Of a stretch of 64,000 nt of DNA, positions 1 to 19,900 are shown one piece after another; the first letter of the stretch is position 1, and each line of letters opens with the position of its first letter. The stretch lies in assembly GCA_000165345.1 (NCBI GenBank), contig CM000435.1, positions 320,001-384,000 on the forward strand, given 5' to 3'. The notes under the pieces are model-generated. The model searched no databases and was not told the origin of the DNA. It worked only from the letters and a program-made list of their open reading frames with translations. The position numbers and the translations under genes are program-made.

Positions 1-3000
1 CACTATCACTGTATGTATCAGTAGTGACTGTTCCAGCATCAGTGTTATAGTCCTCTAAGCCAGAAGGGATTTCCTTTTCTTGGAAAAATTCTCCAAAGGA
101 ATCAATAAAGATTTCCTTGGTTGTTGATTTGGAGAGTCGGCTTCTGCTTAAATTATCGCTGCTACCAATACTATTCAAAGCTAGAGGGAATGTGAGACCA
201 GGCACTACCATCTTACCACTACTGACACTTGATGTTGATTTAGAATTTGTTGGTGAAGGTTCACAATCAACCGCCGGCCAAAGGAAAGAAACGTTTATTA
301 TACCAGGGTGTCTGATTCTTGCAAATCTTTGGATCTGATCCAAAAATACTTCAATATGTTTCAACATCTCTTCATCTTCGTATATATCTGGGCTATGTTC
401 ACCAATTAAGTTATAAGTTAAAAAGTTAAAAATTGATATAGAAAAAGGTGATTTTAGAGAAATACCATGTGATAAAGAATCCAACATTGAAATTAATCCA
501 GGTCTTGCATGCTTGAGAATTTCTGACCATTCATCATTATCAATATTTATTGGCCCTTTATAAACCTTTGACTCTAAATAAGTCCTCCAAGCTGTTGCAA
601 CGTACATAATAAAATTGAATTCTTGGAAAGAAACTCCTGAATATTCTAAACCTGGCTTAAGCCATGGAAGATCTTTCTCACTGCAAACAAATGGCTTCGA
701 AAATGCTTTCCTAAGGAATTCTACTCTCTTTCTGAAAATTTGTAATGGATTCGAAAAATCCCTTATGCTGGGATCCGAACCCATGGCATTATAGATGTAC
801 CAATTTAGCATTATTAGAAATTCCTGAGCAAGCATTGGGAATTTTCTAATGCTGGAGAGATTCTCGAAGATTGAAAGTAATGCATAATACCCAGTATTTG
901 AATGCTTTGATGTGGTATAATTATAATCAGATTCAGATGGCCAGAAACTTCTTGCAATTGAGATGCATTTTCCCAATGTAAGTTCAGCTCTCACTTTTTC
1001 ATTCTTAATGAACCTTAATCCAAGGTAAAAGATTATTCTTCCTAGATTTTTGGCTTCCTCTCCTTCAAATTTAGGAATCTCCAGATTTAATCTCAAAGGA
1101 ATAAAGTTATCAATTATTCCTATCACCCTTCCAACATTAAAGTAACCATCCTCAGCAGTTTCTTTAATAGCATCTAATCCAAAGAGCTGCTTCTCTATAG
1201 CATAGAAAGAATCTAATAATAGATAAGCTTTGTAGAATTCAATATTCTTAAAGTATTTGGAAATCTTGGGTGTTGATTCTAAAATATCCATGCCACTGTA
1301 AGCAGAAAAGAAGTTAATGCAGTCCTCCAAGGAAATTCCTGCTCTGTTATTCCCTCCACCATTATTTGGAAGAATAGCAAAGGAAGATACATTGTCTGAA
1401 TATTGATGAGTTGTTATGTGAATAAAAGAGTGGAATGTTGCAGCTCTGTTTGCAATTTTGATACTAGTAGGTGGGAAACTTCCATCATTACTTATTATCA
1501 TATTACCATCTAATTTGGATATTAACAAAACAGTGGGAAATATACCAACAGTAAAGTCCAGAACCTCTAAAAGATTCATTTGAGCCAAGAATTTATTTAA
1601 TGTCAAAGGTTCTCTTTTCTTTGATGAATCAACATTGAATGTAGGAATTATTCTTAATACAGCTATAAGCTTAAATGGATCCTTCTTCCTGTAATAACTG
1701 CTTTGAACAATTGAAAGCTGAGCATTAATTAGAGGATCTGTATTATAGGAATCTCCAAGGGATTTAGAAAGTGTTCTAATATCAAAGAATCCACGTTCAA
1801 ACTTGCTATTAATAATTCTCTCAAGACTTTCTATATTTCCAAATAGTAGAGAAAGGAGATTCTGATTATAGTTGGAATAAATGCTTTTTTGGTATTTTCT
1901 ATTCTTGGTTGGATCAATATCTTTAATTGGTGAATCTAACTTGGAGTAAGATGAATAAGAAATATCTCCAACTATATCAAATAGTGAATCTAGAATTTCT
2001 GTGAGAGCATCTACCGTTAGATTCCCTACATCTGATCCAATTTCCACGAGAGAGTTCAATATCATCTGAGCAATGCATAAAAATCCTTGATTAGTTACTT
2101 GACTACAACTGGAAGCTCTTAGTAGTATACTGGTACTCATAAAGTTAATAGAAGCTGGAATTGAAAGGATTATTCTGTTTCCTGGATGGTTTACTATGGA
2201 GTTAAGAGATTTAAGGTAATAGACCAATAAGTTAACATGAGGAACAAAAGATTCTTGTAGGCCTGTAAATCCAAGATTCTTGAATGATGAAGTAATTAAA
2301 CCAGTATTTTGGGATACATGTCCAAACTCTGGGACTGTTGAGAAATAGCTTGGCCTTTGTTTAAACTTAAAGTTTGAGAAGCAATCTGCGATTAATTGTG
2401 GCTTTGAGATGAATTCTCTGGCAAAGTTAATTAAGATATGATTCAAAAGGAGACTAAACATGTCTGTTTCTGTAATTTTCAATCCAGATCTTTGGAGGGA
2501 CAAAATAATCTCAGCTGAGTAATACTCATAGAATAGGAATTCAGGATTAGTATCGTAAACACATAACTTGAGAACTGAGATCTTTCGTAGGAAATCAGAA
2601 GAAATCTTGTTGAGATCTTTAGCTGACTTTAAAATTTGTATTGGCTCAAAGAGTTTCCTAGCTGAAAATGATTCAGAAACTCCCAAAAGAACACGCATAG
2701 AAAATGTTTTATAATCCAGACCTAAAGAATAATCTATATAAGAATCACCATTTTCATATTCTTGTTCGTCTTCAATATCTTCGCTAGCGTAATGATTAAA
2801 GTCGTAAGTATCCAAAACATTAGCTGCAATGATCCTGAATAAATCAACTGCTGCATTAATAGTAACTGAATCGCTTAACATAGAAGCAACAAGAGTTTCA
2901 TGTAGGTTATCATACTCCCTAAAGGCAAATGTTAAATCACCATAATAGCTGTATGCATCCTGAATAGGATATTCATTTAAAAGACCATAAGATAGTATGT

Positions 3001-6000
3001 ATCTTTCGATTGGAATCTCCAAGTTATCTTGATCTAATTCTTTAGTAGTGAGGAAAGAACTGAGGAATGAAAAGATGGAATCTGGATCAAGTCCTAAAGA
3101 GGGAGCTGAAATAAGGTCAGGACGATCTCTTGCCCAGAATTCTATAGCACATTTAGTTTTGTGCGGTAATTCAATGGAGTAATTATCCAGTATTACACTC
3201 ACATCTGGAATATCAATAGTGAAAGCTGATCTTGGAGCTGCTGAAAGATATTCAACAAGCTTTTGAGTCACGAAATCATGAATTTGGGAACGTCTATATG
3301 AATCGTGCCCTTCACCCCAAGCCTTATTTTTGATTTGACATCTTTTTCTTTGGAATGGATCATTAATTGGCAAACTAAGAAGGAAAAGACCAGCAATTCC
3401 AGATTCTAAGATCTTGGAGATATTAGAACCACCACTCTCTTCCACCATCCTTTCTTCAAATTCATTATATGCAGCAATTATAGGGGATAATAACTTAGGA
3501 AGGAATCTTCCTGTTTTATGTATTAATTGAGTTTGTAAATCTATACGTAAAGAAGCTCCTTGTCTAATCTCTGCTCCCTCAAAGATTCCAATAATGGACT
3601 TAAAATCATTCAAGAAATCAACAAAGAGTGGATCTCTACCGATAGCTGGTGAAATGTCCCAGATTCGAATAAGCCATTCTCTGAATAATACTGCTCGATT
3701 TAATACGTGTAATCTTAAACCATTGAAATTGTTTCTGAATTGATTTTCATCTGGAGAATCCTGGCCATTATGTAAGGATATGACTCCAGATTCAAAGGTT
3801 GCTTGGCCAAGATCTACCAAAGAATTGTAATCACTGCTTAGATCAAGATTCTGATTCAAACTATAAACTTGCTTAAGCTTTTTCCTGAGTTGAACATGTC
3901 CAGGATCAAATCTAACAAGATGATCATTTGAAGCTTCAGAATATACAGATGAATGTTTTTCACTGCCTAATCCCATCACGAAAGGTACCCAAGGCTTTAC
4001 AAAGCTTCCAGTAATAAAGGATGTCTCTTTAAAGCTGTAGAAGGCATTATTTAGATGGAAATTATTGTTAAGAATTTCCTCAGTTGTGATGGAGGAAGAA
4101 AGTGACTGGGACTTGGGAGAAAAATGTAAGAACTCTTTGTTTTCAAATTCATTCAAAAATATCAATGGAACTGAATCATTGTTTTGGTCATATTTAGTAG
4201 CAGCAAATAATGATTGAATGAAAGGAGTCAAATTCTCAGAGGAGGCAAATGCCAATTGTATAGAACCACCACTGAAGAAATTGTTTGTATGACTCTTATA
4301 TTGTATGTATATCCGTCTAATATCATCAATAGTGAAGTTTCCAAGTGAGAACTTGTCTTTATGAGAAATCAATGTGAAAACTGATTCTGGTATTCCTTCA
4401 TGAATGGATATAGCTGTAGCTCGAACCACATTTTCAAAGTTAAGGAGGTTATGATGCTTGAAGGAGATATAGAAATGGCTCATTCCAATCCTAGAAAGAA
4501 TGTGTAACAAGTAATGGATAAAGCAATAGATATAATTGAACCTGGTGATTTGAAGATTTAATGGAATTCCAGTACTTTTTGTATAAACTGTCATCATTCC
4601 TCTGGAAGAATCTGAAGTAGAAACTGCATAAAAGGCTTGATATTTTTCAGCAGGAATTAGATCATCAAGGCTGATTACTTTCAAAAGACTGTTAAGATCT
4701 TCATTACTAAATAGTGTTAGAGAAATGAGATCAGAGGTAAATTGAGAAAATACATTATAAGTTCTTGCTGAAAGTGTTTTTAGCTGGGTAAATCTGAGAT
4801 CCAATGCAGGCTTATTAAAGTTAGGAATGTGGAATGATTCCAAGAGGCGTGAGATGAACCTTGAGAAGATCTTGGAAAACAAAAGAGAGAATTTGTTAAT
4901 AATTACAAGATTCTCTTTGAGTTTAATAGTACCAAATCCATGAACTCTGACAGCATCCAAAACATTGATACCAAGCATTATAGCTTCTGATACATCTGAA
5001 GTGGAGAATGATGTAATAATTTCAGAAGTTGGAGATAATGACATCTTTTGAGAAGCAATAACAGAGCTTCTAGAGACAATTAGTTTGATATTTTCCCCAA
5101 GAAGCTCCTCTTCAATTTCTGAAAGACCGAGTTTTGGTATGAATGGATTACAACTGTCTTCTATTCTTGAACAACTGAGTCTTAGTGGAATATTTTTTAC
5201 TCTGAAAAGTGGACTTCCAAACTTGAAGAAAGTTGAGAAGATTTGATCAGTAAAGAATTGTAAATAACTATTGGAAGAACTAAAGTTGAGGAAGTTCAAC
5301 TCAAAATTCTCAATAATGAAGTCTGCCAAATCTTCATAACTAGCACCAATTGTTGGAGCTTGGAAAAAGATTCGAATTGAATTACTTTCTTCAAATTCAC
5401 TCCAAATGTACAAGACGTAGGCTAGGGAGTTTCTATTTAAATCAAAATGTTTTGCTATAAATGATGTGTTTGGAATAATAATGGTTGGATAATTACGAGG
5501 ATTTGCTGCAAAATATTCTGAGATGATTCTGAATAAGTATTGAGAGAGGTTCTTATTTTCTGGTCTGACAGAAGTCACCAAATTTCCTTTAGGTATTGGA
5601 ATCTCAGGGATTTTAAGATCGATTGAAAATATAGAATTGAGCATACCAGTATCATTTGAATATGCTGATTCCAAATCCTTGGCTCCTGAGAACTTTAAAG
5701 CTTTGTTTTCAAAATTTAAAAATGAATCAATCATTAGATAAATATGTCTTTTCTTTAAGGAGACCCCAGAAATTCCAGAAATTTGTTTTGATATGGAGCT
5801 GAAAATGACATCTGGGGAAGTCATCATGCATGAAGTTTGAAATGCTTGAGCTAGAATCTCAATATTCGAAAGCAATTCTGCTAATACGAAATCGTTGGCG
5901 TAGAATGGTATCTTTGGCCAGGTAATAAGCCACCAATGCAGGAAAAACACAGCTCTATTCACGCAAATGATCTTCTTATCATGTAAGAAAGAATTTTTGA

Positions 6001-9000
6001 GTTCGTATCTCTCACCTCTTGGAATTTCTTCAACATCTAAGTAAGAAATGGCAATCGAAGATTGACTCTTACTACCAGAATTGAGCTTTATTGGCTTTAA
6101 ATTGAAGGGTAACTTTCTGTAAAGATCATCAAAACTTTCTATTACAATACTTTCTGGCTTTAATTCACTGTCTAAAGGAGCTTCTGAAAAGAAATCGAAT
6201 GATATTTGTCTATTAATACCAGGGACATCTTCCAGTTCACTAAAAGAGTTTGAAAAGAAGACACTCTCTAATACTGATCTAAACATTACTCTTGCCATTG
6301 ACTCTTCTTGACTTGATAATAAAGAAAAGTGATTACTTGATATCTCATCTGAGAATTGCAAAGTACTGGAGTTACTTAATTGTAAATCATCCAAAATGAT
6401 GTCATTCTCACTCATATATCTGCTCATAGCTGCCAAACAAGCATCTAAATTTGAGAATAAGGTTTCATTTGAGCAGTCTTGAGACAAGTTTGGATTGTAC
6501 TTGAGAACGATTTTCCTGACATTTTGATCAAAGAAATCAATCAAAATAACAAGTTTATCAATTTCACTAGCATCCAAAGGACCAAATATCTTCATTGAAA
6601 GATTCTTAATAATTGAAATAAGGACTGATCTGTAAGATAAATATTCAAAGTTCTTAAGTCCGCAAAAACCTGACCATATACTCACATTAGAATAGTCAAG
6701 AGGATCAAGTTTTCCAATCTTATCCTTGTTCTGAGGTTTTTCAAGGACTTTTACAATGAAGTAAGAGAAAACTAGAGCATAATTGCAAATAGGAGTTCTG
6801 GTAACGTGATTTTGTCCAGAAACAAGAGCTACTTCCGATGTTTGAGTTAAGAACCTTTGATTGAGTTTTTGTGAATGAGTGGAGAGATTCCTTGGGAAAC
6901 TGAGTTCTCTAGAATTTAAAGATTCTTCCAAATCAGCAAACATAAACTGATATTTATCAGAGTCAAAATCAATAAAGAGAGTGATCCTGTTTACCAACTC
7001 ATATCTTACATTTTCTGGATAAAATCCTTTAGTGTAAATATCTGAAATAGCACTCTGAAGAATCTCTTCAGCCACAATTCTGTTATCTGAACTCTCAACA
7101 TAAGGTGTAAACTGAGATATCAAGAAGCTCAAGGATTTGGCAAAAGTTGAATAGAAGATATTCCCTGCTAAGTTTTCCAAATTTTGACCAGAAAGATCAA
7201 TGCTTGTTCTAACAATCTCAAGAAGATTTTGTCCAGTTATGAAAGAAAATGAGATTTGTTTGAAAGTTTCACTATTCAAATCTGCAGAGATACCAGTCTT
7301 GGAGGTAGTATAACTGAGAGCCAAACTAATAAGATCACTCATAGCCAAGAATGAACCAAAGTAAGCTTCATCACTGGAGAAGAAATGAGCCGAAAGGAAA
7401 GTATGCTTGAAATCCAATAACTGATCATCAGATTGAACCGAAGTAAGTAAAATCTTATTAATAGGAGAACCAAATTCAAGATGAGTGTTTTTGAATTCAT
7501 TTTCAATATAATGAGAATCCATAATATCTGAGAACGGTAAATTCAATATGTAGAATTCTGCGAGGGAGTTTGCAGAAGCTCCAATAGAAGGAGCAGAAAT
7601 GTAAGGGCTCATGGGACCAAATATTGATGTAATCAAGAAAACTAGCTTTTCAAAATCATTCGAGAAGTTCATTGCCAAGTTAGTTAATCTTGGAATTGCA
7701 ATGGTTGGCATTCTTCTAGGTGAAGAGGCAAAGTATTCAGCTGTGATCCTCTCCAAATAATCCAAGAAGTTGACTCTAGCGTTTGCTTGAGAGTGATTTC
7801 CCAAATCATTTGAATTGGTACTCCCCAAAAGTTCCAAGTTGGGAGTGAAGGAAAAGATTGTGGGAATTTCTAATAAAGGCAAAGTTGTTTTCTTCTTATA
7901 GAATCCTGCAATCATCCGCAAATCCTGATATGCTTCTTCTAAGTTAGTAGCAGGACGATCCAAAGCCAGGAACACGCTGTTCTCATCCGCTATAAAGTAC
8001 TTTACAATAATGTTCAAGGAACTCAAAGCCATAGGGAAAGGATGTGAAGACGTGAATCCTACCAAAGAAGTTGCAAGTATATTACTGTCTTGTGAGAAGC
8101 CAAAAGTGACAAAGGCTGGTAAAAGATTCCTCACGCTTAGGAGATCCCTAGCAAGTAAGGGATCACTACAATGGAAAGGCATTCTTGGTAAGACTGAGGA
8201 AAGCCAGATTCTGAAAGCTTGCATTCTGTTAATATTCTGAGTAGAGCAGGATAACTCTGGGTCAAATCCAGGAGGAGGTGGCTCTAAGATGCCAGTTTCT
8301 GGGTTAATATTCCCAAGCACCAAAGCTGGGATAAAAACACCAGAAAGACCCTTTTCAGCAAGCTCTTCATCAAAGGTAATTTCTCCATTTTCTCCAATAT
8401 GTACGCCTAAGTTAGACATATTGTGTGTATCAGAAATGTTTATTGACGGGGCGATCATTCTTTTGCTCAAAATCATCATTGCTGAACTGAGCAATGTTGA
8501 GGAAAGCGTACCAAGTTCCAAAAGCAAATTGTGAATATCGTTCCTAATCTTCTCAACTACGAATAAAGCCGTGTCTTCCTTGTTAACTTGTGCGTTAAGC
8601 TCATCCAAGAGAGCACTATGTTCCAAGCTAAGTCTCTCAATCTCTGATAAGATCTGAGCAGCTCTTTGTGATCGCTGAGCCTGATCACCATCTTGATCCT
8701 GCCCTGGACCTTCGGATGGCAAGCCTGGAGATGTACCTGAAGGGAGAGATCTGAGCCTCCTAAATTGGTAATTTGTAGGGAGATGGTCTACCCAAGGTAC
8801 CAAAAAGATATGAGAATTGTGACTAAGCCTTGTATTATGTTGAATGTAGAGTTTGAAATCTTCGATACTGAGCAAATAATCGAAGAAGATGGAATCATCG
8901 TTCAAATTCTGACTGTTAGCCCATTTTAATACTTTGATGAATAAATCTTGGCTTTGTGGCTGGGTTTGAAATAGTCTTGTTAAGTATGCTAAGGTCAAAT

Positions 9001-12000
9001 CAGCAAAGTGAATCACGCTTTGATTCTCTATATCTGAACTTGAATAATCATCCCTGTCTTTAACAAAGGTCCAAACACAACTTGGTATAAAGATCTTTCC
9101 ATTCACTAAGTCTATTTCAGTAGCAAACCCACCTTCCAAATCTGGATTTCTTGTGTAGAGAAAATATTTCTCAAAGATTAAATAAGCCATTAAGGCGAAA
9201 GTTAAATCTTCAGCTAAACTATCTGACAGATTTAGGCTTTGATTACCTTGAATGATTTGCTTAATTATATCTTCAGATAAATTTGCTTCATTTGGAAGAG
9301 CTTCAACCAAGGTTCTAAGCTCCTCATAGTTAAACTTTGGAATCTTTCTAAGCTTATAGATGAAATACTGCTGCATCCAATTATAGATTAGTCTAGACCT
9401 GTTTTCCCTAGCAGTTGTTTCCTTTACAGAATTTGCTGAGTAATTCAAAAATAAACTCTCTCCATTGGCAAGATTTCTTAGATATATTGTTGGATCAATC
9501 AAAAGCTCCCAACCATCCAAAGTTAATGCTGCAAAGGTCATTTCCATTGAGTAAACGCTTCCTAGTGCTCCCTGTCCATCAGAGTCCAAATCCAGAACTT
9601 GAGGTAATATAAAACTTTCATAATTCGACCATTCTTGAGCTAGAATTTCTATCAAAGAATCAGTAAAGTGTTCAGGATTTAAATTACTTCTCATTTCATT
9701 AACATATGAAACTTTGTTATTGTCCACACATCCTTGTAAAATCCTATTTGCTTCCTCAGTTGTAATGAAACTGATATTATTGTTTGAATAAGCCTTGATC
9801 CTACTGTTGATGAATCCTTGGAAGAGATAAACTCTTTGAAGCCTTTCTTGAGTTACCAATTGAGGAAATATCTCGGTCATTACACCTTCATTTGCAGCTT
9901 CTAAATATTGATTCATGATATCTAACACATTAACTGCAGCTTCAATTAAGTACTTCCCCTCTACATAACTTGCTAAAGGATACTCGTAAAGAGCTTCAAA
10001 ATAATTATCAATACTAATTGGGCTGAAGCTTGAGTTATGTTCATTAAACAACTTCTTCTCATAGCCACAAAATGCTTTTGGTAAAGCTTTGTACTGTTCT
10101 TGAGTTAATCCTAATCCTTGAATAACTAAAGAAACATCCGAATTCTCATCCAATCTACCTCCCAATGCATTATAAAGTCTTACTGGGGAGATATGAACAA
10201 AATTACCATGTTTAACAAGAATTTCTTCCATAAAGGCTGAAGCAAAAATAAACCTGTTTTGAATCCAACCTGGCATTGAATTAAATGCATAAAAGAAATC
10301 AGGTTTTAAATGGTCAGCTGGAGGAATTCCTTGAGCTGGAGAACTTGGAATAATAGAATCCAAAAAGCTTGGCTTAGGGAATTCTGGAATCATATAGAAC
10401 TTTTCCATTCTCGTCTTGGTAGAGCCTTCCAAAGATGCTAGTTTTCGCTTCTCATGAGCTAAAAAATGAGAAAATAGCTTATCAATCTTCACTGGAAGAC
10501 CGTTTTGGCGTTTCTGCAATGTAGTATTAATAGCCAAAGGCCACTTTGTTCCAGGGTGTCTTTTCTTGTATTTAAAAGCTCCACAAAGCTCTTCAAGAGT
10601 AATGATATCACTTGATGAACCAGTCTTGATGAGTTTTTTGTTCATAACCTCCAACATTGAACAAATCCTATTCATTTCCCAAGCCTTGATTCCATTACAA
10701 TCATTAAATCTGACAGAGATTACACGACCTAAATAATCCAAAATCCCTATCTCTTTCCAAATACGAACTGTATCAGACATGGGACCTCCAACTAAGGCAG
10801 TCTGACGCATTTCTATAACAGTTCTTTCTGGACCAAAGATATCCATAATCTGTGTTCTATCCATTGTTTTACCAGAAGAAGCTTTGCAACCCAATATATC
10901 TCTAGCCATATTTGCTATCTCCGTCAACTGATCCGTAGTCAAAGGATTTGTATAGGTTGCACCAATAACAGCAGCAATAACCTCCGTACACTGTTCCTGG
11001 CTTCTTTCCTCTTCAATAAAGTTAAGCATTATATATACCATTGACATGACTTCATCCCTAGCTATTACAATTCCTAACCTCTTTTCAATCTCGTGCATCA
11101 ATTTCTCTGCAATTCTTCTATAGAAAGGTAGAATCCTGGATTCAAATGAATTATCCTTAGGAAAAGCTTCCAAATGGAAGTAATCTGAAATCTCAATTGC
11201 AGACATTTGCTTCGATTTAGTATCAGCTCTGTGCTTTGGAAGCTGAAGGAAGTAATCTAAGATATACATAACTTCATTAATAATTCCAGAATCATCTGAA
11301 ATTCTTCCCAACAAAATATCATTCTGTAATACAGCTGCAATAATATTCAAAAATTGTGTTCTTGTCCTCATTCCTGAGTATAAATGCAAAAGCATCCTTA
11401 ACATTAAGCAAGTCTCCTGTATTGTTACATAATGTCCAAGTACTTCTCTTAATTTCACTGCAAAAGTTAAAGAAAGACCTACAAAATCCGCAGGGTGAAT
11501 CTTGATTTCTTTATTTTCAAAAGCCTTCTTGGCTGAATCAAAGAGAGCAGAACACTCGTTACTCTTTCTGTATGGTTTAGTTGCTATTTTTGGGAAATAA
11601 TCGCCATACTGAGGATTCAAGTGTTTGTAAGTCTTTCTATTACTTGGGTCTTGCCAAATTGAATCTGTTCCTGGCAAATATGATTTATACTCACTCATTG
11701 ATAACTTTGACTTGTCAATTTTTCTCCTTTCTCTCTTTGTGAATTTTTCATCTGTATTGGTGCTCTTGTGATTCAAAGAATTATTTCCAATACCAATAGC
11801 TTGATCTGTCTGAGTTGACTTTTTAGATTTTCCACTAGGCATAGAACTTTCCTCTTTACTGTCTGAAGAAGTGGAACCACTTGAAGATTTTCTTGGCTTA
11901 CTACCACTACCTGACCTGCTTCTTTTCTTCTTTGAGACCTTTTCTTCTTCCCTTTCGTTAGACTTCGATCTTTCTTCAGCCCTTTTCTTTGATTTTGTTG

Positions 12001-12313
12001 ATTTCTTTTTCTTCCTTCCATGAGTAACTTTTTTTGAGCCTGCATCAGATTCAGACAACTCATCATATCTCATTCCAGGAATCGGATATCTAGGCAATTT
12101 ACCAGTATCCGGATGTTTTTTCCTTCTCTCTGCATCCAATTTACCCATACTGTGAGAAGGTGAAGATTCTGAAGCTTCTACAACGAAGCCAACTCCACAA
12201 ATTCCTTCATTTTTAAATAAACCTATATTCGCATCAAAAAATATTATATTCAATAAAAAAACTGCCAAAAATCCCACCTTCCTGCTTCTTAGAGCATTAA
12301 AAGGCGTCCACAT
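1..12313 (-). CDS. Very large (>4100 aa within window) protein of unknown function, C-terminally truncated by the window edge; probable N-terminal signal peptide/anchor
   Basis: Manual translation of the minus strand gives one uninterrupted frame from ATG (complement of 'cat' at 12311-12313) down to position 1. The N-terminus reads MWTPFNALRSRKVGFLAVFLLNIIFFDANIG, which is hydrophobic. It is followed by a K/S/E-rich low-complexity linker (SKKKRSRSGSGSKPRKSSSGSTSS) and then >3800 aa of ordinary-composition sequence. It is absent from the ORF track, presumably because no stop lies inside the window. The listed ORFs 8010..9612 (+) and 11773..12066 (-) sit inside or antisense to it. Confidence 0.7.
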   Translation of the reverse strand, partial: MWTPFNALRSRKVGFLAVFLLNIIFFDANIGLFKNEGICGVGFVVEASESSPSHSMGKLDAERRKKHPDTGKLPRYPIPGMRYDELSESDAGSKKVTHGRKKKKSTKSKKRAEERSKSNEREEEKVSKKKRSRSGSGSKPRKSSSGSTSSDSKEESSMPSGKSKKSTQTDQAIGIGNNSLNHKSTNTDEKFTKRERRKIDKSKLSMSEYKSYLPGTDSIWQDPSNRKTYKHLNPQYGDYFPKIATKPYRKSNECSALFDSAKKAFENKEIKIHPADFVGLSLTFAVKLREVLGHYVTIQETCLMLRMLLHLYSGMRTRTQFLNIIAAVLQNDILLGRISDDSGIINEVMYILDYFLQLPKHRADTKSKQMSAIEISDYFHLEAFPKDNSFESRILPFYRRIAEKLMHEIEKRLGIVIARDEVMSMVYIMLNFIEEERSQEQCTEVIAAVIGATYTNPLTTDQLTEIANMARDILGCKASSGKTMDRTQIMDIFGPERTVIEMRQTALVGGPMSDTVRIWKEIGILDYLGRVISVRFNDCNGIKAWEMNRICSMLEVMNKKLIKTGSSSDIITLEELCGAFKYKKRHPGTKWPLAINTTLQKRQNGLPVKIDKLFSHFLAHEKRKLASLEGSTKTRMEKFYMIPEFPKPSFLDSIIPSSPAQGIPPADHLKPDFFYAFNSMPGWIQNRFIFASAFMEEILVKHGNFVHISPVRLYNALGGRLDENSDVSLVIQGLGLTQEQYKALPKAFCGYEKKLFNEHNSSFSPISIDNYFEALYEYPLASYVEGKYLIEAAVNVLDIMNQYLEAANEGVMTEIFPQLVTQERLQRVYLFQGFINSRIKAYSNNNISFITTEEANRILQGCVDNNKVSYVNEMRSNLNPEHFTDSLIEILAQEWSNYESFILPQVLDLDSDGQGALGSVYSMEMTFAALTLDGWELLIDPTIYLRNLANGESLFLNYSANSVKETTARENRSRLIYNWMQQYFIYKLRKIPKFNYEELRTLVEALPNEANLSEDIIKQIIQGNQSLNLSDSLAEDLTFALMAYLIFEKYFLYTRNPDLEGGFATEIDLVNGKIFIPSCVWTFVKDRDDYSSSDIENQSVIHFADLTLAYLTRLFQTQPQSQDLFIKVLKWANSQNLNDDSIFFDYLLSIEDFKLYIQHNTRLSHNSHIFLVPWVDHLPTNYQFRRLRSLPSGTSPGLPSEGPGQDQDGDQAQRSQRAAQILSEIERLSLEHSALLDELNAQVNKEDTALFVVEKIRNDIHNLLLELGTLSSTLLSSAMMILSKRMIAPSINISDTHNMSNLGVHIGENGEITFDEELAEKGLSGVFIPALVLGNINPETGILEPPPPGFDPELSCSTQNINRMQAFRIWLSSVLPRMPFHCSDPLLARDLLSVRNLLPAFVTFGFSQDSNILATSLVGFTSSHPFPMALSSLNIIVKYFIADENSVFLALDRPATNLEEAYQDLRMIAGFYKKKTTLPLLEIPTIFSFTPNLELLGSTNSNDLGNHSQANARVNFLDYLERITAEYFASSPRRMPTIAIPRLTNLAMNFSNDFEKLVFLITSIFGPMSPYISAPSIGASANSLAEFYILNLPFSDIMDSHYIENEFKNTHLEFGSPINKILLTSVQSDDQLLDFKHTFLSAHFFSSDEAYFGSFLAMSDLISLALSYTTSKTGISADLNSETFKQISFSFITGQNLLEIVRTSIDLSGQNLENLAGNIFYSTFAKSLSFLISQFTPYVESSDNRIVAEEILQSAISDIYTKGFYPENVRYELVNRITLFIDFDSDKYQFMFADLEESLNSRELSFPRNLSTHSQKLNQRFLTQTSEVALVSGQNHVTRTPICNYALVFSYFIVKVLEKPQNKDKIGKLDPLDYSNVSIWSGFCGLKNFEYLSYRSVLISIIKNLSMKIFGPLDASEIDKLVILIDFFDQNVRKIVLKYNPNLSQDCSNETLFSNLDACLAAMSRYMSENDIILDDLQLSNSSTLQFSDEISSNHFSLLSSQEESMARVMFRSVLESVFFSNSFSELEDVPGINRQISFDFFSEAPLDSELKPESIVIESFDDLYRKLPFNLKPIKLNSGSKSQSSIAISYLDVEEIPRGERYELKNSFLHDKKIICVNRAVFFLHWWLITWPKIPFYANDFVLAELLSNIEILAQAFQTSCMMTSPDVIFSSISKQISGISGVSLKKRHIYLMIDSFLNFENKALKFSGAKDLESAYSNDTGMLNSIFSIDLKIPEIPIPKGNLVTSVRPENKNLSQYLFRIISEYFAANPRNYPTIIIPNTSFIAKHFDLNRNSLAYVLYIWSEFEESNSIRIFFQAPTIGASYEDLADFIIENFELNFLNFSSSNSYLQFFTDQIFSTFFKFGSPLFRVKNIPLRLSCSRIEDSCNPFIPKLGLSEIEEELLGENIKLIVSRSSVIASQKMSLSPTSEIITSFSTSDVSEAIMLGINVLDAVRVHGFGTIKLKENLVIINKFSLLFSKIFSRFISRLLESFHIPNFNKPALDLRFTQLKTLSARTYNVFSQFTSDLISLTLFSNEDLNSLLKVISLDDLIPAEKYQAFYAVSTSDSSRGMMTVYTKSTGIPLNLQITRFNYIYCFIHYLLHILSRIGMSHFYISFKHHNLLNFENVVRATAISIHEGIPESVFTLISHKDKFSLGNFTIDDIRRIYIQYKSHTNNFFSGGSIQLAFASSENLTPFIQSLFAATKYDQNNDSVPLIFLNEFENKEFLHFSPKSQSLSSSITTEEILNNNFHLNNAFYSFKETSFITGSFVKPWVPFVMGLGSEKHSSVYSEASNDHLVRFDPGHVQLRKKLKQVYSLNQNLDLSSDYNSLVDLGQATFESGVISLHNGQDSPDENQFRNNFNGLRLHVLNRAVLFREWLIRIWDISPAIGRDPLFVDFLNDFKSIIGIFEGAEIRQGASLRIDLQTQLIHKTGRFLPKLLSPIIAAYNEFEERMVEESGGSNISKILESGIAGLFLLSLPINDPFQRKRCQIKNKAWGEGHDSYRRSQIHDFVTQKLVEYLSAAPRSAFTIDIPDVSVILDNYSIELPHKTKCAIEFWARDRPDLISAPSLGLDPDSIFSFLSSFLTTKELDQDNLEIPIERYILSYGLLNEYPIQDAYSYYGDLTFAFREYDNLHETLVASMLSDSVTINAAVDLFRIIAANVLDTYDFNHYASEDIEDEQEYENGDSYIDYSLGLDYKTFSMRVLLGVSESFSARKLFEPIQILKSAKDLNKISSDFLRKISVLKLCVYDTNPEFLFYEYYSAEIILSLQRSGLKITETDMFSLLLNHILINFAREFISKPQLIADCFSNFKFKQRPSYFSTVPEFGHVSQNTGLITSSFKNLGFTGLQESFVPHVNLLVYYLKSLNSIVNHPGNRIILSIPASINFMSTSILLRASSCSQVTNQGFLCIAQMILNSLVEIGSDVGNLTVDALTEILDSLFDIVGDISYSSYSKLDSPIKDIDPTKNRKYQKSIYSNYNQNLLSLLFGNIESLERIINSKFERGFFDIRTLSKSLGDSYNTDPLINAQLSIVQSSYYRKKDPFKLIAVLRIIPTFNVDSSKKREPLTLNKFLAQMNLLEVLDFTVGIFPTVLLISKLDGNMIISNDGSFPPTSIKIANRAATFHSFIHITTHQYSDNVSSFAILPNNGGGNNRAGISLEDCINFFSAYSGMDILESTPKISKYFKNIEFYKAYLLLDSFYAIEKQLFGLDAIKETAEDGYFNVGRVIGIIDNFIPLRLNLEIPKFEGEEAKNLGRIIFYLGLRFIKNEKVRAELTLGKCISIARSFWPSESDYNYTTSKHSNTGYYALLSIFENLSSIRKFPMLAQEFLIMLNWYIYNAMGSDPSIRDFSNPLQIFRKRVEFLRKAFSKPFVCSEKDLPWLKPGLEYSGVSFQEFNFIMYVATAWRTYLESKVYKGPINIDNDEWSEILKHARPGLISMLDSLSHGISLKSPFSISIFNFLTYNLIGEHSPDIYEDEEMLKHIEVFLDQIQRFARIRHPGIINVSFLWPAVDCEPSPTNSKSTSSVSSGKMVVPGLTFPLALNSIGSSDNLSRSRLSKSTTKEIFIDSFGEFFQEKEIPSGLEDYNTDAGTVTTDTYSDS

Positions 12314-12340: not shown

Positions 12341-12356
12341 TGCATGCATGCATGCA
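12341..12356. promoter_or_regulatory. tgcatgcatgcatgca, a triple-overlapping TGCATGCA element 30 bp upstream of the giant gene start
   Basis: It is seen directly and lies in the ~1 kb divergent spacer shared with the mucin gene. Confidence 0.45.
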
Positions 12357-13346
12357 ATTCACCTGAGTGGCAACAAAATTACCTTAAATTATTATTATTA
12401 CCAGTTTAAATCCTATTTTCAATTTATCTTACTATTCCCCTATTATTTATTAAATTTATTTATTATCAAAATATGTTCCTGCTAATATATCAATATTTTC
12501 TAAAACCACTAAAATTCCAAAACTTAATTCCCTTGTTCTATTATTACTCCTTTGAATTATAATCCTGTATAAATAAATAAATATAAATATATATATATAT
12601 GTACTCACATAAATAAGCTTTATTTGGTATGTAATTATGCATATATATATTAATATGTATTTACATGCAAGTTCTTCTTATACAGGTAATCCAACCTTTT
12701 TTGTTCTTTTAACAAAAATTTTGAAAACAAATTCTCTCTACTATCTAAAAATTAGTATCGCGACCTCAAAAGATACGTTATTATTGTTTTTACTAATATT
12801 CAACTATTTACTTAGATATCCTGTACCGATATTTTACCCGTGTATCCTTGTTTTCATGTGGGGCAGGATTCCCGCCTAATTAATAAATGTCATTTATTAA
12901 AATTTATTAATAGAGAAAGAAATCCCACGTATAAATCAGAATTCCTTTTTTTTCTTTAAACTTAAAAGATTTTTAAAAATTAATAATTAATAATTTCCTT
13001 CCTTATTTTTATCTCTTTTTCATATTTTTACTAATGAATCAATTACAAACCCCTATTATTTAATACCATAACAAATAAAAAATTTGCCCGTCAGACATTT
13101 CTACCCACCCGCCACCCCCCAAACATTTGTTTCCATCTGTTAGTAATAATAAATCTGTCAGGCGCCACGAGTGCGACAACAAGCGGCATATATTTGAACT
13201 TGAAATTTATTGTGATCTATAATTATTACGCTAAAATTGTTAATTATTAATGATGTTAGGTCTTCACTATTTTCATTCTACGAAATAATTTTTAAATTCA
13301 TTTATAAGATACATTCTTATTGAAGAACACATTTATTTTGAGAAAC

Positions 13347-13910
13347 ATGAGATTCTATTTATTTTTTTTCGCTCTTTTAGTCTTCTTCGTTGCTACCAAT
13401 GCAGTAAGAATTAGAGGTGGTGAACAAAACAAACTTGAATCCGAAACACCTGAAGAAACTACTACTACCACCACAACCACAGCTCAGCCAGACTCTACTT
13501 CTGACGAAGATACCACTACCACTACTACTACTACTACCACTACTACTACTACTACTACTACCACCACTACTACTACTGAAGCTCCAGAACCTGTCGAAAC
13601 CAAAGAGGGTGAAGAGACTGACGAAAACACTGACGAAACTACTACCACTACTACTACTGCATCTCCAAAGCCTAAATCTCCATCATATAAAGACAGACTC
13701 CTCTCATTCTTCGGCAGTAATGGCGGCAGTATGTTCGGTCTCGGAAAGAGCAGCACTACTACTACTACTACTACTGCCCCTGTTTCCTCTGAGGATAATA
13801 AGCCAGAAGATTCTGAGGACGAAAAAGAGTCAGAATCTGAGAGTGATTCCTCAAACGAAGGTTCTTCAAATTCGGAGGATTCTGAGGAGAAGACCAGGAA
13901 AACTGAATAA
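13347..13910 (+). CDS. Small secreted mucin-like Thr-rich glycoprotein with acidic Ser-rich C-terminal tail
   Basis: The track ORF begins at TTG 13320; the first ATG is at 13347. The product starts MRFYLFFFALLVFFVATNAVRIRGG, a signal peptide. It has uninterrupted Thr runs (T8, T23, T7, T7) typical of O-glycosylated mucin domains. The tail is SEDNKPEDSEDEKESESESDSSNEGSSNSEDSEE. Confidence 0.8.
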   Translation: MRFYLFFFALLVFFVATNAVRIRGGEQNKLESETPEETTTTTTTTAQPDSTSDEDTTTTTTTTTTTTTTTTTTTTTTEAPEPVETKEGEETDENTDETTTTTTTASPKPKSPSYKDRLLSFFGSNGGSMFGLGKSSTTTTTTTAPVSSEDNKPEDSEDEKESESESDSSNEGSSNSEDSEEKTRKTE

Positions 13911-14717
13911 AATCATTAGCAAGCTATTCCACAGATTTGGGATAGATCCCATGGTATTTTATCTTGATTTCTCTCAAATCTGGCTGGTGAAATTTTTGTA
14001 TTTATAGTCTGTTTTTCTGTGAGGTTACAGCCCCTGCTAATTTTTAATTTCATTTATTTATCCGGTTTTTAACAAGTGTCGTAACATCTCCCCCTGAAGG
14101 TTAAGTATTTGTTCTTTTATAATGGTTTTTAGTTGCTGTTGTAGACTGAATTTTTGTTTTGTGGTCATCCGTCTTTAATCATCTGAATGTTTGTGTATAG
14201 TGTGCTGTTGCGTTTATAGGCCAATTTTTTCTTCAAATTAACCTTGAATCTATGATTCATCCTGTCTTTATTCTCAAAATCTCTCTTTTATTCATTTTGT
14301 TTTACTGCCTTTCTATTCTACCTGTTTTTCCTAACTATCATTTCTCCGATACTATTTCATTCATTTAACACCGGTACCATATGTGTACATTTCCCGCCTA
14401 AACCCTCAACCTGTAAATTACATGTAAATAATGCATTTGCACTAAAATAGTAAAGAATATAATTGCTTATTGCTATTAAAGAGAGTGATCGAATTTGGGG
14501 ATAAAATTAGTTTTAATTATAGAAGCATTGATATTGTCTAAATTTAAATACAAAATTATATTAAAGTAAAAGAATGGCATGGCTCGTATGAAAAAAGTGA
14601 GGGATTCCAAAGGAATTAAAGATATGGTTAAAAAAAAGATATAGAATAAAAGAGGGATAAAAGAGATCCATTTCTCTTATTTTAAGAAGTTTTGTGATTT
14701 TAAATAAAGTTTTTGAT

Positions 14718-16457
14718 ATGCTGAGATTTTTCTTGAATTTTGTAATTACATTCTTGTCATTAAGCTTTATTATTAATCAAGCTTATTGCATTAGAGTTGA
14801 ACCAAGAGTGACTAGTCTTTTAAATACTCCAATAAATGAAAACATCAGTGAGAGTCAATCTTGTGTGTTACAAACATTGAAAGAGTTAGTATCATCTAAT
14901 GGAAGAATTCCACCCAAAATTACTAAAAAAAGAATTCAACAAGCTGTACTTACTTGCAGGAAGAAGTTAGCTGCATGTGAATATCCAACCATAGCAGAAG
15001 AAACAATATTTATAACTTTAGGCCAATATGGACATCTATCTCAAATAGATACAGTTAAAGCTTTAAGTTTTATTAATGAAATTCAAAAAGGAATAACAAG
15101 TACTGTTGGATCTTATACACGTATGTATAAGTTAAGTCAAAACAATAATTTCTGTAAGCTATATGATGACTTTATCTTATCGGCTTATCCAAAAGAGTAT
15201 TATGTTTCATTTCTTCCAGAAGGTGGAGAAAGATGTCAGGAATTACTTAATAGATTAAAACAAAATGCATTCTATTCGTATTGGGGACAAGGAGGAATTG
15301 TAGCAGACCAAGCTCAACCAATTGTTGATGATAAGGTTTCAAATGACCCAATTAAAACCAAGGATATGGTTATAAATAATATTTTTGAAAATCCTCCAAA
15401 CAAAGAAACTCAAATAGAGGAATTTTCTAAGCCTGAAAGTGAAACCAATAATAAAACTGATTATAATAATGAAAATGAATATGAAAATGTTATTCATACC
15501 AAACAAGAAATCGACCATTTTGAACAAGAAATTGTGGAAGATTCCGGATGTTGTTCTTGTTGTTCTTGTTCATCTAAAAGGACAAAAACCAAGAAAGGAG
15601 AGAATAGTCAACCTCCAAAATTGGTTGACAGTTCTATGACTGAGGAAGAGTTAGAGTTGATTCGACTTGAACAAGAACTTGAGAAGGAGAATTCTGGTTG
15701 TTGTTCTTGTTCTAGTTCCAATAAAAAAAAGAAAGAAAAGAAACAAGTTAATGGGAATGAAATGTCAAATGATATTCTCCAAGATGGAATTATTAATAAT
15801 GAATTGAAAATGCACGAAGATAATAAAAATGAAGAAGACAATTCTTGTTGTGCCTCTTGTAGCTCAAAGAAGGAGAAAAAAAGCAAAACAAAAAATAAAG
15901 AAAAGGAAGTACAGAATGGTGAGACACAAAGAATGGATGAACAAACTCCCAAAACACTCGTTGAGACTTCTATGACTGAGGAAGAGTTAGAATTGATTCG
16001 ACTTGAACAAGAACTTGAGAAGGAGAATTCTGGTTGCTGTTCTTGTTCTAGTTCCAATAAAAAAAAGAGTAAAAATGAGAAAAAAGATAAAAAACAGAAA
16101 AAGGGTAAAGATGAACAGGACAAAAAGGAAGAAAAGTTTGATCAACTACTAGAAGAGCAACAGGAGGGTGAGGAACCAATTGAGGGAAACAAAAAAAGTA
16201 AAAAAGATAAAAAAGCCAAAAAAGATAAAAAGGATAAAAAAAGCAAAAAGAGTAAGAAAGATGAAAATGGAGTCCTAGTCAATTCTTTGCCTGAAGATAA
16301 AATGGAAGGTAAGAAATCAAGTTGTTGTTCAAGCTCTTGTAGTAGTAGCAGTGATAAAGCATCTGATGAAGAGTTAAAGGAGTTAGCTGAGTTGGAGAAG
16401 AGACTTCAAGAGGAAGAAGAAATGCTCCTCCAAAAAAAAAACGGGTTAAAAACATGA
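14718..16457 (+). CDS. Secreted repeat protein with Cys-cluster motifs (GCCSCCSC/CCSCSSS), a duplicated ~35-aa unit and a Lys-rich tail
   Basis: The track start 14694 is GTG; the first ATG is at 14718 (MLRFFLNFVITFLSLSFIINQAYC, a signal peptide). The unit SMTEEELELIRLEQELEKENSGCCSCSSSNKKK occurs twice. CC-S-CC clusters occur five times. The C-terminus has K-rich runs (KKDKKAKKDKKDKKSKKSKK). Confidence 0.7.
   Translation: MLRFFLNFVITFLSLSFIINQAYCIRVEPRVTSLLNTPINENISESQSCVLQTLKELVSSNGRIPPKITKKRIQQAVLTCRKKLAACEYPTIAEETIFITLGQYGHLSQIDTVKALSFINEIQKGITSTVGSYTRMYKLSQNNNFCKLYDDFILSAYPKEYYVSFLPEGGERCQELLNRLKQNAFYSYWGQGGIVADQAQPIVDDKVSNDPIKTKDMVINNIFENPPNKETQIEEFSKPESETNNKTDYNNENEYENVIHTKQEIDHFEQEIVEDSGCCSCCSCSSKRTKTKKGENSQPPKLVDSSMTEEELELIRLEQELEKENSGCCSCSSSNKKKKEKKQVNGNEMSNDILQDGIINNELKMHEDNKNEEDNSCCASCSSKKEKKSKTKNKEKEVQNGETQRMDEQTPKTLVETSMTEEELELIRLEQELEKENSGCCSCSSSNKKKSKNEKKDKKQKKGKDEQDKKEEKFDQLLEEQQEGEEPIEGNKKSKKDKKAKKDKKDKKSKKSKKDENGVLVNSLPEDKMEGKKSSCCSSSCSSSSDKASDEELKELAELEKRLQEEEEMLLQKKNGLKT
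15627..15735 (+). repeat. Copy 1 of an intragenic ~105-bp direct repeat (copy 2 at ~15958-16065)
   Basis: Near-identical nucleotide stretches 'tctatgactgaggaagagttaga(g/a)ttgattcgacttgaacaagaacttgagaaggagaattctggttg(t/c)tgttcttgttctagttccaataaaaaaaag' are seen twice inside the 14718..16457 CDS. Confidence 0.7.
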
Positions 16458-16778
16458 GATTTTGAAATTTCTATAGGTTTGAGCATTATTTGAAGAAAAG
16501 AAAGAGAAAGAAATAAATAAAGGAAAAAAGATTCTTGATAATGTTATCTAAGTGAGCTTCAGTTGAGTATTATTATCAAGTATTCAAACGATTAAGGAAA
16601 ACAAACTTAATAATGCAGAAAATTTATAAGAAAAAAAAAATCGAATTTATTAATAAAAATTTAATGTAGCAAAGAAAGAAAATGATTGCATGCATGCGCT
16701 AATTTTGCATGCAAATACACGTAATATAAATTAACAGAGGATGATATGTAATCCCAATCAGATAAAATTGGAAAAAAA

Positions 16779-16938: not shown

Positions 16939-19900
16939 CTAAAACTTTGTAAGATTCTTTTCAGAACTTATTAAATCTGAAATATTGGCTATAATTGGCC
17001 ATTTTACATCAAATGCAATAGTTTTGTTTCTATTATATAAAATAGTTGAGTTTGTATTAGGGTTTTCTGACCCTGTATAACTTTCATTATAATCTTTTTT
17101 ATAAAGATGTCCTAAACCTCCAAAAGGTGGATCTTGAGATGGAGGAGGAATTTGGAGGTGATCATTTGTGTAAGATATTAGCTCTTGAGCAAGATTGACT
17201 GAAGTTAAGTTCTTAAATATATTTCTTTCCTTGATAAATAAGTCTAATAACTCTGATGAAATCATTTCTGAAATTGAAATATATTCACCAACAGTGCAAT
17301 TATTGTTGAACTCAATATTAGAATTATTATTAGAATCAATATTAATACATTTTGAAAATTCAGAATTCAAGAATATCTTATTTTTCAATTGGATTATAAA
17401 GTTTAAACTTTGAATAAGGGTAGGAAGAGCTTCATTTGAAATGTTTGACTTATTAATCTCATTAAGTTTTTGAGAAATAAAAGAACAAACATGTTTAACA
17501 AACCAATTAGAACGTCTAACTTCAATTGAAGAATTGTATTTAATCTTAGAAAGAGTATCCACAGCATTATTTAAGGTAAATAATGGATCCAATGATGGTA
17601 TAACCAAATCTTTAATTAGACTTTGTATGTCAGATTTATTCTTTAATTTTTCACTAGAACAGAAATCTGATAATACTTGACTAATTTTCATAAACTTTGC
17701 TCCACTTGTATTATATAAAGTGAATTTATTCAATTCACCAAGTATCTTAAGAATTTCATTATTTCCATAAGGTTGTATAATAATCTTTTCTAATGAGAAA
17801 TTACATATTACTGGTTTTGAATCATTCTTCATTTGAATATTAGCACTATAAGTATTTTTTGGAGTTCTTATAATAGAAATATCATAATCTCTTTTAAATC
17901 TAAATCTTTGAAGGAATTCTAAAGCTCTATATGAAATAAGTATTTGATAAGAATGTGATCTTAAGATACTTTCAATTATTGATAATACAAGAGTAGGATA
18001 TGAAATCCAAACCATAGAAAATACCTCATTTTGAAAGTTGGTTACTTTTGAAACCAAGTTTGAGACACGATGATTTGATGGATTAATCATAAAAAAGACA
18101 TTTTCAGATAAAAGTCCAGTTTGTACAATACTTGAGATTTGTTTTGAAAGATCACTTCTTTTTTCACTTAATGGTAAAAAGTATAAGTTCTTATCAGTAA
18201 CAAAAAGTTCTTCTTTTTCTAAAGTTGAAATTACTCTGGCATGAACCTTTCTAGTATTCAATTTTGAATGGAAAATAAACATCTTAGGAAGAACTGGTAC
18301 AGTTTTCAAACTTATATCATCTTTTAGATCAATTTCTGGATTTAAAATTATATTATCCATATTTCTAATCTTTGATTCTAATTTCCAAAATTCTAAAGCA
18401 TCTTTTTTATGTTTTTCAATCATTGAAACTGCTTCATTATTAAATTTATATGTATATTTTGAAGTATCATTAATTCCAAAGTACCAAAGTACATCATTAA
18501 AAGCAAAAGTATTGTTACTTTGATTAACAAATGTCATATTCATATTTAAAAATAATCTTCCATCAACAATGATCTTGAAAACTGTTTCGTTAGTTAAACT
18601 TTCATCTTGAGTTTGTTTTGAACATAACCATCCCATCGAATTCTGAGTTTCTAAATTTGAAAGATTTGTCTCATTAGAATAAAGTACACAAGGATCTAAG
18701 AATTGAATAAAATCAGAACTGGAATTTTTTAATTGTGTTGAGTTATTATTCTGAATAGTACGAACAATATAGGAAGAAATTGGGCCATCTCTAATAATTT
18801 TTGAGCTTGAGACATTATCACAATCAATTTCTGAACTAAATTTTAAACAAAAGCTGATAATTCTTTGTAAAGCTGCTAAACCCATTAAGTCTATCAAGAT
18901 TTTATCAAATTCTTTTGAGAAAGTATCATTTTGTAATATCATTTCTGATTTAGAATGATTCTTTCCAATCAAATTCTTGTTATTTTCTTCATTTTCAGTA
19001 ACTACTAATTGATTTACTTCTACCCAATCTAAAACATTAGATGGATTTTTTTCTTTAGGAACATCAATTGATCCAAATATTAGCTTATTTTTATCATATT
19101 TTAAGATCTTATCTTTATTTCCATTTCTAGACATATTTGATTTAGAATTGATTACTGATAAATGATTTGAACAAGGAAGTGAATTATGATCCGAAATTTT
19201 TTTAGAATTTGAGTTTACAGTAATACCAATTTCATTATTTGTATTATCAAAATTTTTATTAATATTTGTAAATTTTCGATCAAATGTTTGATTATTAAAT
19301 AGAGCTGACCATTCTCCCCAATATGTTTCATTAATTTTTGTAACAACTGGTAAAAATTCTTGTATTGTTGAAGAAACATTATTAATTGATATATTTAAAG
19401 CTTCATTTTCTTCAATATGACATTTAGTTAAATTTGAAACTCTAAAAAGTTCTCTTAGTTCAGCTTCAATAACACTATCCTCGGATTTTAGTAGAGACGG
19501 ATCAGAATCTGCATGCGATAAATGAAGATAATGACAAACTTTTTTTGAAAATAAAATATTTGATAACCAAGAACAAGGAAGTTGAGATTTTGGAGGTAAT
19601 TTTCTTCCATATTTTAAATGATAATATGAAGTACATGGTTTTAAAACTTCATCATTAGTAATAAGATCAACATATCTATCCCAATTATCAGAATGTATTT
19701 TTAGTTTTTTTAAAATTGAATCTTTGAGTTTGAAAGAATAATCACTAAATTCTGAGATTCTATCAGGATTACTGGAAGTAATCCAATCAGAAACAATGTT
19801 ATTTCCAAAAATAAGATTCTTTGTTTCTTTTAAGAAGAAATCTTGTAAAGTATTTAAAGTTTGAGATAGAGTGTTAGAGATAAGAATAATATTACTAAGT

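Follow-up and report, generated by a model that had tools for sequence, protein, structure and literature searches.

What is encoded by the first 12.3 kb of a 64,000-nucleotide stretch of Cryptosporidium parvum chromosome 7 (GenBank assembly GCA_000165345.1, contig CM000435.1, positions 320,001 to 384,000; the whole stretch is termed the window throughout) is not evident from a list of its open reading frames (ORFs), as no ORF of ≥100 amino acids (aa) was listed within positions 1-12313. From the sequence alone, an initial annotation had proposed that this interval is filled by one unlisted minus-strand gene of >4,100 codons, encoding a giant secretory-pathway or surface protein of an apicomplexan. 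The DNA is indeed apicomplexan and the gene is cgd7_1270. The reading favoured here, to which we assign a probability of roughly one-half, is that cgd7_1270 is a soluble secretory cargo of the zoites and would act as a large, non-enzymatic helical scaffold.

Translation of the minus strand from position 12313 to position 2 generated 4,104 codons with 0 stops, as expected for a single continuous gene. The G+C content of the window is 32% and the minus-strand stop frequency, computed from base counts, is ∼0.076 per codon; the same arithmetic gives a chance probability of ∼1e-141 for a stop-free run of 4,104 codons. The ORF lister leaves out frames that run past the end of the source and the cgd7_1270 frame crosses the left edge of the window, therefore its unlisted status is a tool artefact. 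The translation was 100% identical over 4,104 aa to cgd7_1270 of C. parvum Iowa II (XP_628312.1 / UniProt Q5CYR8, 4,157 aa), with the alignment beginning at residue 13 of XP_628312.1, and the peptide FPKDNSFESRILPFYRR, quoted in the initial annotation, was found near residue 384. The window does not reach the last 41 codons of the gene or its stop codon. cgd7_1270 is a single-exon gene that has been in the public annotation since the 2004 genome and is present in ten Cryptosporidium species clusters, where it and its orthologues are labelled 'hypothetical protein', 'large hypothetical protein' or 'putative integral membrane protein'. The gene is real and correctly delimited and the secretory interpretation is reasonable but unproven; the gene is not new, and the repeat architecture and paralogue family described below are modest additions to it.

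The features of cgd7_1270 are as follows, in window coordinates (dN/dS is the ratio of non-synonymous to synonymous substitution rates, against C. meleagridis; HMM, hidden Markov model; AF2, AlphaFold2).

2..12313, minus strand: cgd7_1270 coding sequence, codons 1-4104 (0 stops, 100% identity to XP_628312.1, dN/dS 0.164)
12347..12349, minus strand: alternative in-frame upstream ATG, inside the TGCATGCA repeat (used by the older Iowa II gene model)
12224..12313, minus strand: signal-peptide-like N-terminus, aa 1-30 (Kyte-Doolittle scan; hydrophobic region common to orthologues and paralogues)
11714..12181, minus strand: basic Ser/Lys/Glu/Arg-rich low-complexity linker, aa 45-200 (composition; dN/dS 0.27)
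10154..11701, minus strand: conserved 'head' domain, aa 205-720 (common to shorter Cryptosporidium paralogues; dN/dS 0.096)
8294..10153, minus strand: middle helical region with short beta-hairpins, aa 721-1340 (low-confidence AF2 model, motif scan)
6029..8293, minus strand: repeat module R1, aa 1341-2095 (HMM and hhalign self-comparison; AF2 model)
3764..6028, minus strand: repeat module R2, aa 2096-2850 (hhalign against R1)
1514..3763, minus strand: repeat module R3, aa 2851-3600 (hhalign 98%; HMM domain E-values 1e-11 to 1e-17)
2..1513, minus strand: degenerate fourth module and C-terminal region, aa 3601-4104 (motif-level similarity only)

Probable secretory character of the cgd7_1270 protein

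The upstream ATG lies 12 codons before the Met at 12313 and accounts for the 12 extra residues of the 4,157-aa model; newer gene models, for example CPCDC_7g1270 (4,145 aa), start at the ATG at 12311-12313. All 11/11 aligned orthologues start with the Met that corresponds to 12313, and only this downstream Met is conserved across species.

From this residue the protein begins MWTPFNALRSRKVGFLAVFLLNIIFF and, as had been claimed, its N-terminus is hydrophobic, containing the one strong hydrophobic window of the protein. A basic n-region (R9, R11, K12) is followed by the hydrophobic stretch VGFLAVFLLNIIFF with a core of 14 residues, and this signal-like pattern of hydropathy and charge is kept in 16/16 orthologues and paralogues. 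No second conserved membrane segment was found in a hydropathy scan, in which the other hydrophobic windows were weak and non-conserved. The full-length C-terminus (...EDLPYDNISS) is hydrophilic and carries no KDEL/HDEL, hydrophobic tail or glycosylphosphatidylinositol (GPI) signal. Transmembrane (TM) segment, GPI signal and endoplasmic reticulum (ER) retention motif are all absent, as would be expected of a soluble secretory protein. A secretory entry signal is thus plausible, since the hydrophobic region is kept in every orthologue and paralogue and there is no conserved TM segment elsewhere, and the suggestion of a surface protein is not supported in its membrane-anchored sense.

The same N-terminal segment could be an uncleaved signal anchor, in which case cgd7_1270 would be a type II membrane protein with a giant luminal or extracellular ectodomain. 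The segment is the single one of its kind in all orthologues, and the C. meleagridis record and one C. hominis record are labelled 'putative integral membrane protein', which would suit this arrangement. The hydrophobic core is ∼13-16 residues long in most species, and small residues that could form a cleavage site (VEA/SES) come after it. Cores of this length are found more typically in cleaved signals than in membrane spans, and nothing else in the sequence points to membrane association; a signal anchor is therefore considered unlikely. The signal-like N-terminus, the conserved cysteines and the lack of an anchor or retention signal appear to be those of a soluble secretory-pathway protein.

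Expression and proposed role

By reverse transcription PCR the cgd7_1270 transcript was ∼0 at 2 h and 6 h, was on at 12 h, dipped at 24 h, rose again at 36 h and persisted to 72 h (PMC3305300); the forward primer used in that work maps to window 196-217 on the minus strand. Genes that cycle at 12 h and 36 h were described as meront-stage and rich in structural and microneme-associated products (PMC3305300). The protein was recovered by an anti-DG8 pull-down with 40 unique peptides and 89 peptide-spectrum matches (PMC13241007, S1 Table), and cgd7_1270 is one of the 85 genes of an oocyst signature that was derived from the oocyst-wall proteome of Truong & Ferrari at a threshold of ≥20 unique peptides (PMC6877471 supplementary code). 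cgd7_1270 is translated and its transcript has its onset at 12 h; oocyst and sporozoite material is rich in the protein, which was also recovered from recently infected cultures. Apicomplexan genes with their onset in late schizogony typically code for components of the zoite, the cargo of secretory organelles among them. The combination of secretory sequence features, onset in late schizogony and detection in oocysts, sporozoites and infected cultures therefore favours a zoite secretory cargo.

Other mentions are sparse. In main-text literature cgd7_1270 was found only in a phylogenomics partition list and in primer names that mean cgd7_1260/CDPK9, and its other identifiers returned nothing. 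The primers cgd7_1270-F and cgd7_1270-R were used to clone CpCDPK9, which is given as cgd7_1260 in the same paper (PMC8875172, section 2.2). As no match to the forward primer was present in the part of cgd7_1270 that the window covers (12.3 kb), the primer name is probably a typographical error.

On the favoured reading, the protein would enter the secretory pathway by a cleavable N-terminal signal and lack a membrane anchor. It would be transcribed while meronts assemble daughter zoites, be carried in oocysts and sporozoites, and be stored as cargo in the lumen of a secretory organelle of the zoite. Once discharged, it may constitute a very large helical scaffold at or near the vacuole or the interface between parasite and host, in which the cysteine-containing head would serve for specific attachment and three to four helical modules of ∼750 residues would supply the length and repeated surfaces for binding. 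Cleavage of the signal, the organelle, secretion and the scaffold role are inferences on our part; an invasion- or organelle-related role, as first suggested from the sequence, agrees with the meront-stage transcript and with the oocyst and pull-down proteomics.

Several observations weigh against this. The enrichment with DG8 was not significant (log2 fold change 2.65, p = 0.056) and the authors did not call cgd7_1270 an interactor (PMC13241007), and cytosolic contaminants such as EF1a, GAPDH and HSP70 are in the same oocyst-wall list (PMC6877471). The signal peptide was judged from hydropathy alone, and the AF2 model of aa 196-1395 was poor, with a predicted local distance difference test (pLDDT) score of 55. 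Furthermore, the polar residues N, R, D, E, E, Y, R, T and N are invariant across the aligned R1-R3 copies, and these could mark a catalytic or ligand-binding site, not a passive scaffold.

The proteomic data also bear on whether cgd7_1270 might have a structural role in the wall of the oocyst or in its inner matrix, and be made for the transmission stages and not for the host interface. Its place in the oocyst signature (≥20 unique peptides; PMC6877471) and the persistence of the transcript at 48-72 h, when sexual stages appear, are both in keeping with such a role. However, transcription has already begun by 12 h, in asexual meronts, with a second peak at 36 h, the proteome list holds obvious non-wall proteins, and the protein is also found in infected-cell material. 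Cys makes up only 0.8% of the sequence, in which there are no COWP-type repeats and no Pfam match, and on balance a wall or matrix component is considered unlikely.

Membership of known protein classes was also considered. A Cryptosporidium oocyst wall protein (COWP), a class marked by cysteine-rich type I/II repeats and by expression late or in female stages, was rejected on the count of Cys (32 in 4,157 aa, 0.8%), the lack of a Pfam match and the transcript at 12 h. A mucin-like glycoprotein of the gp900 type, for which long Thr/Ser tracts would be expected, was rejected as Thr is 4.6% overall and the sole S-rich part is the basic linker at aa 45-200. gp900 (cgd7_4020) is a giant microneme mucin with Thr-rich mucin domains and a TM anchor; it is a very large secretory zoite protein, as is proposed for cgd7_1270, and is in the same oocyst proteome list, whereas mucin tracts and a TM segment are absent from cgd7_1270, for which a helical structure is predicted. 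The SKSR, MEDLE, WYLE, FGLN and GGC families have a signal peptide, are genus-only and without known domains, and are small, multi-copy and often subtelomeric. cgd7_1270 resembles them, when compared by description and not by sequence, in its signal-like N-terminus, restriction to the genus and lack of known domains, but differs in its length of ∼4,150 aa, in being present as a single copy at a syntenic position throughout the genus, and in evolving under purifying selection.

Tandem repeat modules and the cgd7_1270 family

Following the N-terminal segment, the linker that had been described as K/S/E-rich was found to be so, with S 19.9%, K 17.9%, E 9.6% and R 9.0% over aa 45-200; its composition is kept across species, yet it is the least conserved stretch in sequence. 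Conservation is highest in the head (∼205-720), which shows 43-62% identity when compared with the six most distant orthologues, those of C. ryanae and C. xiaoi (37% identity overall), of the gastric species (31%) and of sequencing run SRR31860986 (54%). Five cysteines of the head (C254, C302, C442, C539 and C577) are invariant and are kept even in paralogues. A motif scan located an N-R helix motif at residue 686 and another at residue 971, the latter in the middle region.

The remainder had been taken for >3800 aa of ordinary sequence. No known domain was found in it, as claimed, but a tandem architecture of three to four modules of ∼750 residues had been missed. Plain self-BLASTP also missed these internal repeats and profile methods (HMM, hhalign) were needed. 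R1 and R2 matched with an hhalign probability of 99.9% over 575 aligned columns, while in R3 the first ∼250 residues alone are clearly homologous to R1 and R2 (hhalign probability 98%). Each module opens with a helix of the form h-N-R-h-x-x-F/h-x-x-W, at residues 1362, 2119, 2872 and 3622, and the fourth module keeps only this opening motif (the N-R helix at aa 3622). The motifs EY(F/L)(A/S)xxPRxxPT(I)xIP and APS(I/L)GAS are present in R1, R2 and R3. Module motifs were also found in gastric Cryptosporidium species, therefore the internal multiplication is older than the radiation of the genus. Fifteen columns, mostly polar or Pro/Gly, are invariant across R1-R3 copies that share only ∼18-20% identity, these include N18, R19, D40, E100, E182, Y183, P188, R189, T193, G234 and N374.

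The AF2 model of R1, for which R1, R2 and part of R3 from several species were stacked as the input alignment, was all-alpha with ∼30 helices (pLDDT 68, predicted template modelling score 0.62), and four confident blocks span module residues 10-640. Foldseek of this model against PDB folds returned nothing significant (best E 0.33), and PDB sequence searches with the protein and two profiles returned nothing below E 0.69. Pfam gave no match for the whole protein at E ≤ 1, and no consistent match in the paralogues or, at E ≤ 10, in any member of two sub-alignments. Cyclin-box and Rb-pocket five-helix bundles and the spidroin repetitive domains were counted among the nearest known systems. The model suggests that the R1 module is helical, and either its fold is new or the model is imperfect.

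The invariant columns raise the alternative that the modules are catalytic or ligand-binding domains of unknown type, making the protein a multi-site enzyme or receptor. That fifteen mostly polar or Pro/Gly columns should be kept at such low identity, with the EYxxxxPRxxPTIxIP and APSIGAS motifs falling in predicted loops, speaks for this; residues invariant in every repeat copy can equally be fold-determining, no Pfam family, PDB sequence or PDB fold was matched, and we regard such a function as improbable. A cytosolic giant of known kind (a VPS13/BLTP-like transporter or a HEAT/ARM solenoid, with the hydrophobic N-terminus as an ER anchor) is suggested by the size and the N-terminal hydrophobic segment, a segment that BLTP1 also carries, but is very improbable given no Chorein_N, VPS13, HEAT or ARM match even at E ≤ 1-10, a prediction that is almost all-alpha and not a beta-groove, a repeat period of ∼750 aa against 40-50 aa, and no homologues found outside Cryptosporidium among the sequences searched, whereas BLTPs are pan-eukaryotic. 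As class assignments, a HEAT/ARM alpha-solenoid, which would show short helical-hairpin repeats of ∼40-50 aa that Pfam can detect, was rejected on no HEAT/ARM match at E ≤ 10 in 23 scanned segments and on the repeat period, and a VPS13 or bridge-like lipid transfer protein on 0 Pfam matches at E ≤ 1 and on two AF2 models that are almost wholly helical.

One orthologue per cluster was found in the ten Cryptosporidium species clusters, with lengths of 3,800-4,166 aa. Identity to the window protein was 97% in C. tyzzeri, 93% in C. hominis, 87% in C. meleagridis, 73% in chipmunk genotype I, 62% in C. ubiquitum, 54% in SRR31860986, 37% in C. ryanae / C. xiaoi and 31% in C. muris / C. andersoni / C. 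serpentis (orthologue identifiers include CTYZ_00000721, cubi_02799, CMU_033260, cand_029350, FG386_003701 and RS030_6870). Both full-length near-identity and chromosomal neighbourhood place cgd7_1270 in this orthologue group. Three genes that precede the orthologue in C. meleagridis, coding for 196, 573 and 1,434 aa, match window ORFs 13320-13910, 14694-16457 and 16939-21390, and a calcium-dependent protein kinase (CDPK) gene lies downstream of the orthologue in C. meleagridis and in the SRR31860986 locus, the corresponding side in C. parvum being outside the window. cgd7_1270 is under purifying selection: Nei-Gojobori dN/dS against C. meleagridis was 0.164 overall and <0.3 in every segment after the signal peptide, from 0.096 in the head to 0.27 in the linker, with R1-R4 at 0.125-0.197.

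Two gene models of orthologues merit comment. The C. meleagridis span is a single open frame of 4,142 codons (JIBK01000039.1, 10001-22429) for which the annotated product is only 4,122 aa; the public model has probably had ∼20 codons removed as an intron that may not exist. The C. canis orthologue is split into ≥2 short gene models, OJ253_2523 and OJ253_2522, of 332 aa and 1,067 aa. The shorter of the two turns into unrelated sequence after ∼residue 245, which suggests a frameshift or assembly error.

Word-indexed homologue searches, with the protein and with an 11-sequence profile, returned Cryptosporidium orthologues only. An exhaustive HMMER search, which uses no word index, of 1.84 billion representative proteins with a profile of residues 196-1395 returned eight proteins, six of them Cryptosporidium records and two from the SRR31860986 run, which also carries a syntenic orthologue. 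The eight comprised three orthologues, two fragments of the split C. canis model and three paralogues that share the head. Among the sequences searched, the repeat region by the word-indexed method and the N-terminal ∼1,200 residues exhaustively, cgd7_1270 thus appears to be restricted to Cryptosporidium.

The paralogues are CMU_037490 / cand_033400 (∼2,280 aa), a 2,322-aa SRR31860986 protein and FG379_000366 / RS030_203118 (∼1,056 aa); none was found elsewhere within the window. Genomes that carry them also carry the giant orthologue; one sequencing run yielded both the 2,322-aa paralogue and an orthologue of 4,140 aa, therefore the two types coexist in a single genome. Like cgd7_1270, the shorter proteins have a signal-like N-terminus, internal repeats and a homologous cysteine-containing head, which matches cgd7_1270 aa ∼215-630 with E-values of 1e-12 to 1e-29, and they have in common with it the helix motif h-N-R-h-x-x-h-x-x-[YF]-h. 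They differ in being a quarter to half its length and in lacking the 750-aa module of R1-R3 (hhalign probability ≤ 1.2%), and in the 1,056-aa form the head is in the C-terminal half, after a Gly/Pro-rich region. A bolder proposal, which we put forward as a speculative one, is that cgd7_1270 and the shorter paralogues might belong to one superfamily, confined to Cryptosporidium and based on a hitherto undescribed module of ∼640 residues that is all-alpha (N-R helix, PRxxPTIxIP and APSIGAS motifs). The giant member of this superfamily might be a load-bearing or organizing element at the epicellular host interface that is unique to the parasite, in the dense band, feeder organelle or vacuole matrix.

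Upstream region and significance

Two candidate regulatory features were identified in the region upstream of cgd7_1270.

12341..12356, no strand assigned: three overlapping copies of the palindrome TGCATGCA, candidate ApiAP2 site (28-43 nt upstream of the ATG at 12313)
12869..12876, minus strand: E2F-like GGCGGGAA motif in the shared 1-kb intergenic region (enrichment in the window; PMC3734150)

The palindrome TGCATGCA occurs in 13 copies in the window against 0.62 expected (12341-12356, 16687-16713, 28952-28978, 36018, 40330-40383, 43367 and 60339), several of them in short clusters, and some copies are just upstream of the ORF starts at 12313 (minus strand), 28836 (minus strand) and 60444 (plus strand). 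It looks like a widely used promoter element of the ApiAP2 type, and has been described as the binding site of the ApiAP2 protein cgd2_3490 (PMC3734150). GGCGGGAA occurs in five copies against 0.27 expected, at 12869, 14391, 21505, 33208 and 55624, all on the minus strand. ApiAP2 and E2F-like sites are over-represented upstream of 12-h genes (PMC3734150), and the presence of both motifs upstream of cgd7_1270 would fit its expression profile.

The divergent neighbour of cgd7_1270, ORF 13320-13910 on the plus strand, has a signal-like start (MRFYLFFFALLVFFVATNA), long poly-Thr tracts and an acidic Ser/Glu tail. Its only Pfam match is sub-threshold ('New_glue') and a 196-aa gene is at the same place in C. 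meleagridis; its product is probably a mucin-like secreted protein, as judged from these features. The neighbouring ORFs 14694-16457 (plus strand, 587 aa) and 16939-21390 (minus strand, 1,483 aa) gave no Pfam match at E ≤ 0.01.

A missing ORF is an ordinary finding of a genome scan, and this gene has been publicly annotated for two decades. Nevertheless, no function has been assigned to a protein that is among the largest of a major diarrhoeal pathogen, although it is expressed, conserved across the genus and under purifying selection. cgd7_1270 was absent from the other sequences searched, therefore it is probably absent from the host. If the protein is secreted and forms a structural part of the zoite organelles or of the host-parasite interface, a large piece would be added to a structure that is only now being mapped and the repeat module would be a candidate new fold, while its restriction to the genus would make cgd7_1270 a possible diagnostic or vaccine antigen.

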